This document shows, one piece after another, positions 2,855 through 62,991 of a DNA stretch of 64,000 nt. Source of the stretch: a virus; IMG/VR virus record IMGVR_UViG_3300029913_000003, positions 64,001 to 128,000 of that record. One strand, written 5' to 3'. The notes below the pieces were generated by a model. It saw only the letters and a program-made list of their open reading frames with translations, was not told the origin of the DNA and did no database searches. The translations under genes were made by a program, and so were the position numbers. Position 1 is the stretch's first letter. Each line of letters starts with the position of its first letter.

Positions 2855-3184
2855 ATGATTAAAGTTTATATTGCATCTCCTTATACAAAAGGAGATCCTG
2901 CAGTTAATGTCAAAACTCAAATTGATATGGCAGATGAATTAATAAATAAAGGATTTGCGCCATTCGTTCCATTATATTTCCATTTTCAACATATGCATCA
3001 TCCCAGACCATATGAAGATTGGTTGAAATTAGATTTAGAATGGATAAAAAGTTGTGATTGTATATTAAGATTACCAGGAGAATCAAGCGGAGCAGATAAA
3101 GAAGTTGATTTTGCAACTAATAATGATACATTAGTATTTTTCTCAATGAAAGATTTATGTTTTTATTACGATATAGAATATTAA
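2855..3184 (+). CDS. Nucleoside 2-deoxyribosyltransferase-like (DUF4406-like) protein
   Basis: Pattern VYIASPYT ... W...LEWIKSCDCILRLPGESSGADKEVDFA resembles the DUF4406/NDT-like fold. The call is by recall only. Confidence 0.4.
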   Translation: MIKVYIASPYTKGDPAVNVKTQIDMADELINKGFAPFVPLYFHFQHMHHPRPYEDWLKLDLEWIKSCDCILRLPGESSGADKEVDFATNNDTLVFFSMKDLCFYYDIEY

Positions 3185-3300
3185 TTTATTGATATATAAA
3201 TATTTAAAAAATATTTTAAAATTTAACACTAAAATATTTGGTGATATGAAAACTTTTAGTAATTTTGCATCACAAACAAAAACAAATGTAATTATTTACA

Positions 3301-3345
3301 ATCAAATCAACTAAGAAAAATAATAAATATCTTAGTTGATTTGAT
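3301..3345. repeat. Perfect 15-bp inverted repeat (hairpin)
   Basis: atcaaatcaactaag ...15 nt... cttagttgatttgat. Confidence 0.5.
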
Positions 3346-3497
3346 AATTTAATAAGAGGACTTGAAAAAAATTTCAAAACTTTAACATTAAATATTTGGT
3401 GAAATGAAAACATTTTTATAATTTTATTCTACAATAAAAAAACAAAAATTTTTAAGTAATAGTATTGAAAAAAAAAAACTTCAAAACTTTATCATTA

Positions 3498-3533
3498 AAT
3501 ATTTGGTAAAACAAAAAACTTTTTGTAATTTTA
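3498..3533 (+). promoter_or_regulatory. Promoter-like unit (-33 TTTG, ~20 nt spacer, -7 TAATTTTA)
   Basis: Matches the Bacteroidetes sigma-A consensus TTTG-N19-21-TAnnTTTG, with one mismatch in the -7 box. Confidence 0.4.
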
Positions 3534-3550
3534 TTCTACAACAAAAAATA

Positions 3551-3568
3551 TCAAGTAAGAGTACTTGA
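3551..3568. promoter_or_regulatory. Palindromic operator-like site TCAAGTAAGAGTACTTGA
   Basis: Perfect 7-bp half-sites, located about 25 nt upstream of a promoter-like unit. Recurs at 4873-4888, 5182-5199 and 5925-5942. Confidence 0.35.
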
Positions 3569-3594
3569 GAAAAAAAGTTCAAAACTTTAACATT

Positions 3595-3631
3595 AAATAT
3601 TTGGTAAAACAAAAAACTTTTTGTAATTTTG
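3595..3631 (+). promoter_or_regulatory. Promoter-like unit (-33 TTTG; -7 TAATTTTG)
   Basis: Full match to TAnnTTTG, preceded by TTTG at about 20 nt. Confidence 0.45.
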
Positions 3632-3703
3632 AACTACAACATCAAAAGAAAAGTAATTATAAAAATTATATTTTAATTGAAAAAAAGTAGAAAAAACTTT
3701 CAA

Positions 3704-3740
3704 AAATATTTGGTAAAACAAAAAACTTTTTGTAACTTTG
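3704..3740 (+). promoter_or_regulatory. Promoter-like unit (-7 TAACTTTG)
   Basis: Same repeated core as the other units. Confidence 0.45.
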
Positions 3741-3813
3741 AACTACAATTCAAAAAGAAATATAGTTTTAAAAAATTAAATTTCAATTGAAAAAAGTTCA
3801 AACTTTAACATTA

Positions 3814-3850
3814 AAATATTTGGTAAAACAAAAAACTTTTTGTAACTTTG
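3814..3850 (+). promoter_or_regulatory. Promoter-like unit (-7 TAACTTTG)
   Basis: Same repeated core. Followed by hairpin RNA-like unit 3890-3958. Confidence 0.45.
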
Positions 3851-3889
3851 AACTACAATAAAAAACAAATCAAACTTCAGATTGAAAAA

Positions 3890-3958
3890 AATCTAATGGT
3901 ACAAAAACCAACTCAAAGCTTGCGAGAGTATAGATAGTGCAAATGAACACACTTAGAT
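3890..3958 (+). repeat. GC-enriched ~70-nt hairpin unit (candidate small RNA), diverged copy
   Basis: atctaatggtacaaaaacc..aagcttgc..atagtgcaaatgaacacacttagat. Terminal ATCTAA/TTAGAT inverted ends. Confidence 0.35.
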
Positions 3959-4167
3959 TAATGTAATAATAATTTAGTAGTAAGGAAACAAACTTTAATC
4001 TTGAAAAAGTTTATAGTGAAACTTGAAAATAAATTTAATATTACAAAAGTAAATATAGTAAGTTCAAACTTACTGTTTCTAATCTGTGAAGATAAAAAGG
4101 ACTGAAAATGATTTGATTTTTATTTACTCTTGTAAACGTACTTGAGAAAAAATAGAAAATACTTTCA

Positions 4168-4205
4168 AAAATATTTGGTAAAACAAAAAACTTTTTGTAA
4201 ATTTA
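4168..4205 (+). promoter_or_regulatory. Promoter-like unit (-7 TAAATTTA)
   Basis: Same core. Followed by the GC-elevated block starting near 4255. Confidence 0.4.
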
Positions 4206-4254
4206 TTCTATAATAATTTAAATCAAAAAATCAGATTTAAACAAGAAATATCAG

Positions 4255-4760
4255 CGAGATTTGCGCTCTGAGTGTATATATTTATAAGAAAATATATATC
4301 AACCAGATGAATGAGAAGCTCATAGTGGTGAGTCAATGATAAGATTATAATCTTAAATAATCAATATTATCAAAGATAGACAGTCCATTGAAACAGATAT
4401 ATAAGACATGTAGAACTTATCTTGTTATAAATATACAAAGCAACCACACCGTGGAGATTGAATATTGGAATTAAATTTCGAATATGATAAAATCCTAATG
4501 TTAGATGAGACGTGACTAACTACTTTCATTCCACTACAAGGACTGATTATTGATTAAATTATAAAATGTTGGAGATAAGCACACAGGGTGCATCATTATT
4601 AGAATAATCTAATTTGAAGGGGCAAGTGTCAATGACACAAGGTTCAATTCCTTCTATCTTCACTATGAATATTGATTTCAACACTGAAAATCAGAACTTG
4701 TTCTGAAAGTAAGTTCCACTATTGATATTCATAACCAACAACAAGCGAGTTTTGGTTAAA
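4255..4760. ncRNA. Candidate structured non-coding RNA (GC-elevated, ORF-free ~0.5 kb)
   Basis: GC clearly above the surrounding sequence. No ORFs. T-loop-like hairpin AAGG-TTCAATT-CCTT at about 4620-4637. Flanked by a 7-nt complementarity AGATAGA (4380) / TCTATCT (4641). Confidence 0.25.
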
Positions 4761-4913
4761 TAATAAATATTAAAAAATGTATATTAATTAATTGAAATCT
4801 CTTGAAAAAGAGCTGTTAATTTAAATAATATGATTTAATAACATTATTTAATCAAAATTCCTTGGATAAAAACAAGTAGGAGTACTTGAAAAATAGTTCA
4901 AACTTTAACATTA

Positions 4914-4950
4914 AAATATTTGGTAAAACAAAAAACTTTTTGTAAATTTG
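4914..4950 (+). promoter_or_regulatory. Promoter-like unit (-7 TAAATTTG)
   Basis: Same core. Followed by hairpin unit 4994-5062. Confidence 0.45.
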
Positions 4951-4993
4951 AACTACAATAAAAAAGAAAATCATAATTCAGATTTAATAGATA

Positions 4994-5062
4994 ATCTAAT
5001 GGGATAAAAACCACCTTGAAGCTTGCAAAAGGAAAGATAGTGCAATTAAACACTCTTAGATT
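4994..5062 (+). repeat. GC-enriched ~70-nt hairpin unit (candidate small RNA)
   Basis: Contains ccaccttgaagcttgcaaaagga. Confidence 0.35.
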
Positions 5063-5181
5063 GATAATGATAATAATCGTAAGATTATTAAATTACAAGA
5101 ATAAATATGATAAATGAAAATTTATTTTTTCTAAGCTGAGAAGCTAAAAGAACTGATAAAAGATTTTTTTTAATACTCATT

Positions 5182-5199
5182 TCAAGTAAGAGTACTTGA
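5182..5199. promoter_or_regulatory. Palindromic operator-like site TCAAGTAAGAGTACTTGA
   Basis: Identical copy of the palindrome at 3551-3568. Confidence 0.35.
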
Positions 5200-5221
5200 A
5201 AAAAATGTAGAAAAAATTCAA

Positions 5222-5258
5222 AAATATTTGGTAAAACAAAAAACTTTTTGTAATTTTG
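5222..5258 (+). promoter_or_regulatory. Promoter-like unit (-7 TAATTTTG)
   Basis: Same core. An upstream palindrome lies at 5182-5199. Confidence 0.45.
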
Positions 5259-5367
5259 TACTTAATAAATAATAATCATCTAATTGAAACTAGTTTATTG
5301 CTTCCATGTGATACTTCAATTTATGATTAGTAAGATTATTATTAATTTAAAAAAGTATAAAAATTCA

Positions 5368-5405
5368 AAAATATTTGGTAAAACAAAAAACTTTTTGTAA
5401 ATTTG
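5368..5405 (+). promoter_or_regulatory. Promoter-like unit (-7 TAAATTTG)
   Basis: Same core. Followed by hairpin unit 5465-5522. Confidence 0.45.
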
Positions 5406-5464
5406 GACTACAATAATGAAACAAATCAAATTTCAGATTGAAGCAATAAAAATATAATGGTACA

Positions 5465-5522
5465 AAAACCACCTTGAAGCTTGCAAAAGGAGATAGTGCA
5501 AATGAACACAACTTATATATTA
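5465..5522 (+). repeat. GC-enriched hairpin unit (candidate small RNA)
   Basis: Same core sequence as 4994-5062. Confidence 0.35.
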
Positions 5523-5544
5523 AGTATCTTGCTGAAACAATTAA

Positions 5545-5612
5545 AATCTAATGGGATAGAAACCACCTTGAAGCTTGCAAAAGGAGATAGTGCAATTAAA
5601 CACACTTAGATA
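5545..5612 (+). repeat. GC-enriched hairpin unit (candidate small RNA)
   Basis: Near-identical to 5639-5706. The tandem period is about 95 nt. Confidence 0.4.
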
Positions 5613-5638
5613 TTAAATATTGTATAAGTAACTAAAAA

Positions 5639-5706
5639 ATCTAATGGGATAGAAACCACCTTGAAGCTTGCAAAAGGAGATAGTGCAATTAAACACACTT
5701 AGATAT
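5639..5706 (+). repeat. GC-enriched hairpin unit (candidate small RNA)
   Basis: Near-identical tandem copy of 5545-5612. Confidence 0.4.
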
Positions 5707-5756
5707 TAATGAAATTGAAAAAGTAATAAAAATAATCAAAGGCAATAGCCACCTTG

Positions 5757-5792
5757 AAGCTTGCAAAAGGAGAGATTAATATTACAAAAGTA
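5757..5792 (+). repeat. Truncated copy of the hairpin unit
   Basis: agccaccttgaagcttgcaaaaggagag. Confidence 0.3.
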
Positions 5793-5979
5793 AATATTGC
5801 AAAAGTAATAAAAATTCAAGGATTTATATTACAAGAGTAGATATAATGAACATAACCAAATGTTTATTGTTCCAATGATAAAGTTCTGTGAAGAACAAAG
5901 GACTGAAATAGATTTGTGACATTTTCAAGTAAAAGTACTTGAACTTTTAAAACAACATGAATTAATATAAAATTATGTA

Positions 5980-6950
5980 GGTTGAAATTCCAGGAAAGTG
6001 GATCAATAATGAGCAGAAAGTTAATGTCTTTCTATCGCTTTTGTTAAGTCTTATTTAAAATTCTTCTATATTAATTCTGTTGTTTTTTTAAAGCGTTCTT
6101 TGTAAAATTGAAAATATTTGGCTGTCTGTAGTCATAAATAAACTACGAAAGTAGTATAAAGTGAGTTATAGTTGTTTCTATAACTTGCGGTATTAAATGT
6201 GCAGTTGATTTTATTTTTTCGGAAATAAAATTAATTGTAAACAATAATACTTGAGCAGACAATCAGGATATCATTAAACCTTGATTATCGAGGGTAACAC
6301 TGTAGAGAAAGTGGTTTAATGCAAAGGCTATGTGGGTAGTCTGAGTGAGATGGGAACATCAATAAGAATAACCTGAAGGATTATTGCAAGAAATACGATT
6401 TCCAGTTGTGTAATTGCGTTATCCAATATAAAAGTTGACTTAAAACCGAAAGGTAAATTAGATTGTAATACAATGTACAGGTGGTGCTGTAATTAAGGTT
6501 ACCTTAACATTACCAAGTGTTACGAGAGTATCTTAGTTGACTTAAAATATGGAGGTAGGGATATCTCAGAGAGTAGTTTAGTATAGCTCAGTTCAAAAGA
6601 TTGAGAAGCTGGTTGTCGAACCACTACTTTCATCATCCACAAAACAAACTTTAACTGCAAATTTAATGCAAATTAAAATAAACAAATAAAGGAAAAGAGT
6701 TCGACTGTTGTTAGTGATAGGTGACTACTAGTTATGAGAAGCAATTCGTCGTAGCCGTGAAAGACCCCAAGTCCAACATGATTTTTAAGAAAGTTCTCTA
6801 AATCCGCAAGATTTAATCTGGAAGGCATTCTAGATGAGTAATGATTATTAAGAGAGTAATTAACAACAAAAGGAGTGGTGAATCTAATTGACCGTCATTG
6901 GAGGAGTACCAATTCAAAAGATTGGTGGAAAAGAAGCAGAAAAAATAATA
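5980..6950. ncRNA. Candidate large structured non-coding RNA (GC-elevated, ORF-free ~1 kb)
   Basis: About 35-40% GC by eye against about 25% around it. No ORF of 60 aa or more on any frame. Many short GC-rich helices. A tRNA-like D-loop/T-loop pair (TAGCTCAGTT ... GGTTGTCGAACC) near 6580-6635. Confidence 0.3.
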
Positions 6951-6999
6951 GTTTCTAAAGTTCTTCTCTATAATGCTGTATTCTCAAGCAATATAAAAT

Positions 7000-7040
7000 A
7001 AAAATCCTATCTAATTGAAAAATTAGATAGGATTTTTTAT
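7000..7040. terminator. Bidirectional intrinsic terminator
   Basis: aaaATCCTATCTAATTgaaaaAATTAGATAGGATtttttt. Confidence 0.55.
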
Positions 7041-7085
7041 TTATAAGCTATTTCACTTATAAATACACTTTATAAGTTATTTCAC

Positions 7086-7397
7086 TTATAAATTGAATTT
7101 GTTTGCATCTTGTTTTAATTTATAATCTTTCATAAATTCTTCAACTTCGTCGTCAATAACTATATATTCTCTGTTTTTTAAACATAATCTATCATCCACG
7201 TACTTTCCTTTTTGATCTAGATACACTCCAACATCACCATTACAGGAACCAAATGGATGAGTAAGAGTACCAGTTAAATACTCATCATCCTCTTTAAATT
7301 TGATTTTAGTGCCTACTGGATATTTAGATCTACCTGCTAATATAACATCATCATCTAACATTGTAAATTGATGCTCATTAAATTTTAGTATTTTCAT
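7086..7397 (-). CDS. Family A variant (N-term MKILKFNE, C-term ANKFNL)
   Basis: C-terminal tag present. Start taken at the ATG at 7397 (MKILKFNEHQ), not at the upstream ORF-track start. Confidence 0.5.
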   Translation of the reverse strand: MKILKFNEHQFTMLDDDVILAGRSKYPVGTKIKFKEDDEYLTGTLTHPFGSCNGDVGVYLDQKGKYVDDRLCLKNREYIVIDDEVEEFMKDYKLKQDANKFNL

Positions 7398-7401
7398 ATT
7401 A

Positions 7402-7851
7402 CTATATATTAAATTTTTTAGCATTAAATATATCAGGATGATTTATCTCTAACCATTTGTTATATTCATCTAAATTGTTATAAGGTAGGTTATTACCTTC
7501 ACATACTAATATTTCTAATGTCTCTGGTAATAATGGTAACTCAGATAAATTATTATTACTACAATTTAATGTCTTTAATGAATATGGTAATGTCGGCAAT
7601 TCTTTTAAATTATTAGAATAGCAAAATATTTTTTTTATTGAGTGCGGTAAAGTAGGTAACTCACGCAAAACATTATTAAAACAAGATAATATCTCTAATG
7701 TCTCTGGTAATGTTGGCAATTCTTTTAAATTATTATTATAGCAATATAATTCTGTTGTTGTATCTGGAATATTTGATATTATAAATAATCCTTTATCATT
7801 TAATGTCAATACATTATCCATTATATGTTCAAATGTTTTTATATATTTCAT
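7402..7851 (-). CDS. Family A protein with leucine-rich repeats (LxxLPxLP type)
   Basis: N-terminal MKYIKTFE, C-terminal AKKFNI. Five tandem copies of NNLKELPTLPETLEIL. Confidence 0.65.
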   Translation of the reverse strand: MKYIKTFEHIMDNVLTLNDKGLFIISNIPDTTTELYCYNNNLKELPTLPETLEILSCFNNVLRELPTLPHSIKKIFCYSNNLKELPTLPYSLKTLNCSNNNLSELPLLPETLEILVCEGNNLPYNNLDEYNKWLEINHPDIFNAKKFNI

Positions 7852-62811: not shown

Positions 62812-62904
62812 ATTTCAGGATTTTTTTGTTCTTTCTCTAAGATTTGAACTTAGTCATTCATTGTCAGAAAATGATATGCTATCATTACATCAAGAAAGAA
62901 TATT

Positions 62905-62991
62905 GTCGCCTTGGTGGGGTTCGAACCCACAAGCTCACAATGAGCATCAGTTTCAAAGACTGAAATGTTTAGCCAATTCCATCACAAGGCA
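62905..62991 (-). tRNA. tRNA, type II (long variable arm), anticodon UUG by manual folding
   Basis: Read on the minus strand:
- acceptor stem TGCCTTG / CAAGGCG (U1-G72 wobble), U8, A73
- 3-bp D stem ATG / CAT
- anticodon stem TCAGT / ACTGA with loop CTTTGAA
- variable arm GCTCA-TTG-TGAGC
- T arm GTGGG-TTCGAAC-CCCAC. Confidence 0.6.

Follow-up and report, generated by a model that had tools for sequence, protein, structure and literature searches.

GOLLD is among the largest noncoding RNAs of bacteria and phages; it forms a 14-mer nanocage of no known function, and the only consistent clue from its genomic context is adjacency to tRNA genes, tRNAs being proposed as the contents of the cage (PMC12286853). 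In the tRNA islands beside GOLLD and ROOL of phages and prophages, small cloverleaf RNAs, individually promoted or co-transcribed, lie on the same strand upstream of GOLLD (PMC12286853), as do the repeat units considered here, which differ in that they are not tRNAs and are present in repeated, near-identical copies. Phage-encoded tandem direct-repeat RNA arrays with a single promoter and variable copy number are also exemplified by ToxI and phage pseudo-ToxI, whose repeat is about 36 nt, compared to 93 nt here; unlike them, our array has no toxin gene downstream, and single units occur in two other transcription units. By analogy, the units may be likened to the CsrB/RsmY/RsmZ sponges, highly expressed noncoding RNAs where a short conserved loop motif is shown many times on hairpins, although the motif here is AAGCUUGC in an 11-nt loop and not GGA, and its hairpin is embedded in a four-helix junction; no CsrA-type partner is known in Bacteroidota. 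The tRNA-like TMER RNAs of gammaherpesvirus 68, as well as mascRNA, are non-aminoacylated, clustered cloverleaf small RNAs, but these are eukaryotic, dependent on pol III or RNase P, and detectably related to tRNA, whereas the units here have no detectable tRNA relation.

The window, that is, the whole stretch of 64,000 nt analyzed here (positions 64,001–128,000 of IMG/VR record IMGVR_UViG_3300029913_000003), has a GC content of 22% and is phage DNA; its genes include those for a gp32-like ssDNA-binding protein, an Eco57I-type methylase, and a GIY-YIG endonuclease. The gp32 homolog is nearest to those of the LR745206 and LR756501-4 phages (634–735 kb, 42–47% identity), for which Bacteroidetes are the predicted hosts (PMC7162821); this agrees with the promoter type in the window, and the host is probably a member of the Bacteroidota. 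We also considered membership of the bS21 phages (up to 331 kb; PMC9723584), but their GC content of 31–34%, compared to 22% here, probably indicates a different clade. Elsewhere in the window, two adjoining tRNA-Gln genes with anticodons CTG and TTG were observed, the second being 87 nt long with an extra arm of 14 nt, which is unusual for tRNA-Gln, and a 238-bp tandem duplication lies just before the Eco57I-type methylase gene (Table 1).

Repeat units and their relatives

The initial annotation had reported tandem repeats with a period of about 95 nt, in four tandem and two dispersed copies, as a candidate small-RNA family. Tandem Repeats Finder indeed detects an array at 5448–5773 (period 93, 3.5 copies, 85% matches), and the repeat search yields a single family of six copies with spacings of 1103, 458, 94, 93, and 93. 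In the window, the 24-mer CCACCTTGAAGCTTGCAAAAGGAG occurs five times at no more than one mismatch (0 expected), and the 18-mer GATAGTGCAANTNAACAC from the 3′ part of the unit occurs five times (0.03 expected). With unit boundaries set by the covariance model (CM) R1, the family comprises five full units of 66–68 nt, one truncated variant, and one decayed copy (Table 1). Thus, the fourth tandem copy is in fact the truncated variant, of which only the middle hairpin is left, the positions given earlier were approximate, and the decayed copy comes in addition. The long core sequence ascribed to all copies is exact only in the identical copies 5546 and 5639. In copy 5452, an additional A precedes CTTATAT and the ending has T where the core has G; copy 4994 departs from the core by one substitution and a 2-nt insertion, and copy 3891 by its stem. 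Likewise, the inverted ends ATCTAA/TTAGAT hold for four units, copy 5452 having ATATAA/TTATAT, which is a compensated change, and the units are GC-enriched in a relative sense only, with 33–38% compared to 22% in the window.

Table 1. Positions of the features discussed in the text; scores of units are those of CM R1
Feature	Position in window	Strand	Details
Six tandem promoter-like units	3237-3850	+	starts ~3237, 3393, 3500, 3598, 3707, 3817
Unit copy 1 (68 nt)	3891-3958	+	87.9 bits; middle stem ACUC/GAGU replaces CCUU/AAGG; pairs 22-40 and 25-37 compensatory
Decayed unit copy	3972-4030	+	28.7 bits, E=1e-4; closing stem AUUUA/UAAAU; loop AAUCUUGA; L001 ortholog 33.9 bits
Tail of transcription unit 1	4031-4147	+	hairpin GUAAGU/ACUUAC, conserved CUGUGAAGAUAAAAAGGACUGAAAAUGAUUUG, end hairpin 4128-4147
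Candidate large structured RNA	4206-4890	+	own promoter core (4172)
tRNA-like domain of this RNA	4571-4665	+	L060 1712-1800; L001 4751-4839 (-)
Promoter of transcription unit 2	4917-4950	+	identical core; -7 box TAAATTTG; predicted start ~4955
Unit copy 2 (68 nt)	4994-5061	+	89.5 bits
Tail of transcription unit 2	5062-5200	+	hairpin AUAAAU/AUUUAU, then U-run; end hairpin 5181-5200
Extra short transcription unit	5225-5371	+	this lineage only
Promoter of transcription unit 3 (tandem array)	5372-5405	+	predicted start ~5410
Unit copy 3, opens tandem array	5452-5518	+	90.1 bits; closing stem AUAUAA/UUAUAU; pair 3-68 compensated
Unit copy 4 (66 nt, reference copy)	5546-5611	+	95 bits
Unit copy 5	5639-5704	+	100% identical to copy 4
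Truncated variant unit	5735-5795	+	28.3 bits; hairpin GGCAAUAGCC, then middle hairpin CCACCTTGAAGCTTGCAAAAGGAG with conserved loop (5749-5772)
Tail of transcription unit 3	5796-5941	+	hairpin AUGAACAU/AUGUUUAU, conserved CUGUGAAGAACAAAGGACUGAAAUAGAUUUG, end hairpin 5922-5941
GOLLD 5′ domain	~5950-6568	+	includes motif GTACAGGTGGTGCTGT at 6475-6490
GOLLD RNA, conserved 3′ domain	6569-6990	+	Rfam RF02032, 278.9 bits, E=1.6e-78; gathering score 150
Leucine-rich repeats	7402-7851	-	
Ankyrin repeats	7848-8420 and 8737-9180	-	
Tandem duplication, 238 bp	16003-16471		2.0 copies, 92% identical
Eco57I-type methylase gene	16679-18124	-	
Two tRNA-Gln genes	62828-62991	-	anticodons CTG and TTG

Loop-based pattern scans of IMG/VR, JGI metagenomes, and one genome per bacterial species (185,579 species) identified true units in three lineages only, the other hits in viral, metagenome, and reference-genome data being chance or coding; no true unit was found in the 185,579 bacterial species genomes. 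Lineage 1 is formed by the window and a matching 1.5-kb metagenome contig, lineage 2 by L001, L050, L092, and L098 (contigs up to 330 kb), and lineage 3 by L060, L037, L058, and L086 (contigs up to 178 kb). The island is syntenic in all three, with GOLLD in the same orientation, and the number of units is 3+1 here, about six in L001, and about 3+1 in L060; no dispersed copies were found across the 330 kb of the relative. The truncated variant, which has neither the third arm nor the closing stem, is conserved in all three lineages, and its orthologs carry the stem ACUU/AAGU, that is, a compensated one.

Fold, covariation, and conserved loop

According to the single-sequence fold, the unit is a cloverleaf-like four-helix junction with a 6-bp closing stem (AUCUAA/UUAGAU) and three short hairpins, and RNAalifold independently gives the same four helices with a consensus energy of -5.3 kcal/mol. 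The long imperfect hairpin predicted initially is therefore ruled out by both the minimum-energy and the consensus fold; the internal stem proposed for it, CCTTG/CAAGG, is actually the 4-bp stem CCTT/AAGG, as CAAGG does not occur and the sequence reads CAAAAGG. On neither strand does a single unit fold with a better energy than shuffled sequence (z from -0.3 to +0.05), and hence thermodynamics by itself lends no support to the fold. Among the 17 distinct copies from the three lineages, 95% of cells are paired and seven pairs change on both sides, which is matched by none of 500 shuffles; pair counts from alignment A4 are biased towards structure, since it was fitted to the model, and a hand-made alignment of the copies gives the same pairing result. 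When the partner is slid by any offset, pairing in these 17 copies falls to 30–49%.

The robust pairs are 3–68 in the closing stem (CG/AU/GC), 22–40 in the middle stem (CG/AU/UA), and, also in the middle stem, 25–37 (UA/CG/UG). Helices 2 and 4, of 3–4 bp each, covary in the decayed copies only, which leaves these two arms weakly supported, and the independent substitution events are few, as only three closely related lineages are available and many copies are paralogs. Judging from the aligned sequences, maintenance of the closing and middle stems by compensatory changes, both among paralogs and among the three huge-phage lineages, appears robust. The U–G and G–U pairs of the units would become A–C mismatches on the opposite strand, and their presence on the + strand argues for an RNA transcribed from this strand and against a DNA site. 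Compensatory substitutions that preserve pairing, the generic criterion of a structured noncoding RNA, are observed in the closing and middle stems as well as in the hairpin of the downstream tail. The compensatory changes, the G–U pairs, and a dedicated promoter upstream of each set of units thus uphold the proposal that the + strand encodes a family of structured small RNAs.

The apical loop of the middle hairpin, 11 nt of the form (G/A)AAGCUUGC(A/G)A, is kept in all copies except the two most decayed ones, and is retained by the truncated variant as well; its 8-nt core AAGCUUGC is present in all intact copies, and the loop reads as GAAGCUUGCAA. The sequence AAGCTTGC occurs six times in the 64 kb, once in each of the six units with a preserved loop and nowhere else, and is lost from the decayed copy. 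Outside the units, AAGCTT, a HindIII-type site, is found only twice (39197 and 60731), compared to about 17 expected in the whole window, so the loop is kept against a genome-wide trend. The scarcity of this site in the window suggests restriction-site avoidance. The third loop has 8 nt, CAA(A/U/C)U(G/A)AA, and the first loop contains no GG. Complements of the conserved loop within the window are at chance level only, pairing of the three loops with GOLLD or with the 4.2–4.9 kb RNA is no better than with shuffled targets in any lineage, and none of the ten flanking ORFs is a candidate protein partner.

We compared the units with known classes. ARAGORN, at both default and lowered thresholds, finds no tRNA at 3000–7200, and the Rfam tRNA model has no match at E up to 5; ARAGORN hits appear at the 70% threshold only, on the opposite strand and among 24 noise calls. 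The closing stem has 6 bp, compared to the 7 bp of a tRNA acceptor stem, and no linker bases, the middle loop has 11 nt, compared to 7 nt for an anticodon loop, and there is neither a T- or D-loop consensus nor an anticodon loop. A tRNA or mitochondrial-type tRNA was therefore rejected, as neither detector calls the units. Relaxed-threshold searches with the families of Rfam 15 over 3000–7200 of the window and 700–3760 of L060 yield only GOLLD and chance-level matches. A CRISPR array, in which repeats of 23–55 nt alternate with unique spacers that are similar in length and vary from strain to strain, had been dismissed in the initial annotation, and we concur: the unit has 66 nt, and the 27-nt spacers are not variable but about 70–85% identical between the three lineages of related phages, which excludes such an array; no Cas domains are found in the ten flanking ORFs. 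In a type III toxin–antitoxin system of the ToxIN kind, short tandem RNA repeats precede a terminator and the gene of a toxin endoribonuclease; here, GOLLD follows the array, and the + strand has no ORF of 40 aa or more from 5609 to 8066. A coding repeat was rejected as well, since the sole ORF over the units has 42 aa from a TTG start and is cut by a stop in each unit, and the substitutions preserve pairing, not codons.

Transcription units and the GOLLD neighbor

The 29-nt promoter-like core TATTTGGTAAAACAAAAAACTTTTTGTAA, of the format TTTG-N20-TAnnTTT(G/A), is present in eight identical copies, all within 3500–5400 on the + strand, with two diverged copies upstream. Seven of the 11 full matches to TTTG-N20-TAnnTTTG in the window fall inside the island, and its -7 box, TAnnTTTG, corresponds to the flavobacterial sigma-A consensus (PMC9723704). 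In related phages, the core is identical and is absent elsewhere, including the 330-kb contig. Dispersed copies had been said to lie behind promoter-like units, and every set of units does begin 74–80 nt downstream of an identical core. The core also holds a perfect inverted repeat, ACAAAAA-AC-TTTTTGT. The six promoter-like units at the start of the island are arranged head to tail, 98–158 nt apart; the first five are each followed by only about 60 nt, in some cases just a hairpin, CAAGUAAGAGUACUUG; the last unit of this array (3817–3850) is assigned to transcription unit 1 by prediction.

Three paralogous transcription units are predicted on the + strand, at ~3855–4147, 4955–5200, and 5410–5941 (about 293, 246, and 532 nt). 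All three are built alike: the promoter-like core is followed by a common leader, by between one and four units, and then by a structured tail and an end hairpin. Amplification of the units is seen in the third. According to the tail comparison (alignment A5), the tails share a covarying hairpin with three compensated pairs, the conserved single-stranded CUGUGAAGA..GGACUGAAA..GAUUUG, and the end hairpin CAAGUAnnAGUACUUG. As each set has the shared leader and structured tail, the functional RNA may exceed the 66-nt unit. The end hairpins are without the U-tract of classical terminators, and the terminator scan finds none there; its sole terminator-like site is a 17-bp bidirectional hairpin at 7000–7037, 3′ of GOLLD, and, apart from it, the sigma-70 and terminator scan hits were discarded as noise in AT-rich DNA. 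Long-range pairing of leader CAGAUU with tail AAUCUG, read by eye, was rejected as well, because transcription unit 2 lacks it in both lineages.

The ORF-poor RNA island thus delimited spans 3.9 kb and ends in GOLLD, with no notable ORF over 3200–7080; directly downstream of it lie small ORFs with eukaryote-like repeat domains (7402–9180 on the - strand). Within the island, an ORF-free stretch of about 650 nt with its own promoter core is a candidate for a large structured RNA; it is noticeably more GC-rich, matches no Rfam family, and shows 81% conservation in both related lineages. It contains a tRNA-like domain, in which the acceptor stem has 7 bp (GGAGAUA/UAUCUUC), the D-arm is GCAC/GUGC, the extra arm is long, and the T-arm bears the loop UUCAAUU; in the relatives, a 7-bp stem with a tetraloop takes the place of the anticodon loop, and ARAGORN calls the domain only at the 70% threshold. 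In the extra short transcription unit specific to this lineage, 28 nt (5294–5321) are 79% complementary to the leader of the tandem array (5423–5450), with 11 perfect pairs, UUUAUUGCUUC with GAAGCAAUAAA; such complementarity might reflect either regulatory pairing or a hairpin formed on read-through.

The GOLLD RNA, which went unremarked in the initial annotation, lies 0.9 kb downstream of the repeats and is judged complete; the units are outside the RF02032 model, which also matches GOLLD of the relatives. Using the 5′-domain motif, we retrieved 113 further phage GOLLD loci from IMG/VR (L115–L227). None of the 113 contains the unit, and hence it is not a general companion of GOLLD. A same-strand tRNA within 2.5 kb upstream was found in 58 of 99 other GOLLD loci, mostly tRNA-Met starting 486–858 nt before the motif. 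The tandem units here lie 695–1038 nt before the motif (motif end 6490); by these distances, the array occupies the slot usually held by tRNA-Met. In LR745206.1 (634 kb), tRNAs including tRNA-Met precede GOLLD and have their own TTTG..TAnnTTTG elements. No promoter core was found between the tandem array and GOLLD, so the two may be co-transcribed. The promoter motif before tRNAs in GOLLD loci is not informative (16 of 536, compared to 8 of 580 random positions).

Possible roles of the small RNA

The small-RNA module is real, non-random, and previously undescribed, and the locus is a natural variant of the tRNA-beside-GOLLD arrangement, in which the slot is held by an amplified non-tRNA RNA of cloverleaf shape. 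In our opinion, the repeats probably, if by no means surely, represent a structured small RNA that is restricted to this clade, highly expressed, and amplified in one transcription unit, and whose action depends on the conserved loop; this RNA is possibly linked to GOLLD. The promoter cores would be strong host sigma-A promoters of the Bacteroidota type, yielding abundant RNAs, and the number of units (3+1 here, up to about six in a relative) may have been raised for dosage. The helices would serve as a scaffold presenting the conserved loop, by which the RNA may bind a partner, i.e., a titrated protein, another RNA, or a second copy of itself, the latter being conceivable because AAGCUU is self-complementary.

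The position of the array suggests that the units might be tRNA surrogates, that is, tRNA-shaped RNAs in place of tRNA-Met upstream of GOLLD, cut by RNase P and RNase Z and serving as its partner or cargo, the cutting also setting the 5′ end of GOLLD. The cloverleaf-like fold, the tandem array in the slot where LR745206.1 has tRNA-Met, the lack of a promoter core between array and GOLLD, and the proposal of tRNAs as cage contents (PMC12286853) all fit this reading; we still consider it unlikely, as the units fail all tRNA criteria tested, two of the three unit sets are not next to GOLLD and have their own end hairpins, the unit is absent from the 113 other GOLLD loci, and base complementarity to GOLLD was not found beyond chance. 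It is, moreover, weakened by the closing stem and the third arm, which stack to 9 bp only. Such a stack is short for RNase P recognition. That a new class of tRNA-shaped non-tRNA RNA took over the role of tRNA-Met beside GOLLD, as a partner or cargo of the nanocage or as a processing signal, seems decidedly doubtful.

The tandem, dosage-variable array in a phage, with the same loop on at least six hairpins and a very strong dedicated promoter set (predicted), would also suit an RNA decoy against host defence or an RNA-binding protein, similar to pseudo-ToxI, RNA anti-CRISPRs, and the CsrB/RsmZ sponges, in which many copies of the loop trap the target. Such a decoy is improbable, however, given a period of 93 nt, compared to 34–45 nt for type III antitoxins, the absence of a toxin ORF downstream, the failure to find either similarity to CRISPR repeats or the unit itself in the 185,579 bacterial species genomes, and the lack of a known target. 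Action at the DNA level, where the repeats would be origin iterons, a partition site, operators, or what is left of a small mobile element having inverted ends, could account for the palindrome AAGCTT within a partial inverted repeat and for the inverted unit ends beside a dense array of other repeats, and a single protein binding both inverted ends would likewise be expected to make them covary. It is nevertheless very improbable, since U–G and G–U pairs are tolerated on the + strand only, the middle stem is free in sequence but keeps its pairing (three pair types at 22–40), unlike a sequence-specific DNA site, and position and orientation behind the promoters are fixed in all lineages, with no dispersed copies in 330 kb. 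Several classes of small ribozymes are associated with phages, and a four-way junction with conserved loops in tandem copies might process the array into monomers, as a self-cleaving ribozyme or in some other way; the probability of this is minimal, as the ribozyme families of Rfam give no match even at E up to 5–10, and as hairpin and twister-sister ribozymes typically have their conserved bases in internal loops or junctions, whereas those of the unit are in hairpin loops.

If the structured small RNA that we favor is functionally linked to GOLLD, then it is the shape and processing of the neighbor that matter, not decoding, and the units would provide a defined, amplifiable handle on the function of GOLLD, the small RNA itself being a candidate for GOLLD binding. 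Without this link, the units still form a new, well-delimited family of phage small RNAs in a rare 3.9-kb all-RNA island. In either case, the locus illustrates how a phage whose host is probably a member of the Bacteroidota might provide its small-RNA genes with a dedicated set of promoters.

Further observations concern the other GOLLD loci, L115–L227. Many of them have direct repeats of 40–80 nt within the 0.4–1.1 kb that immediately precede the 5′ domain, which are probably repeated promoter modules of local tRNA genes, and tRNA-Met is by far the commonest immediate upstream neighbor of GOLLD in this set.
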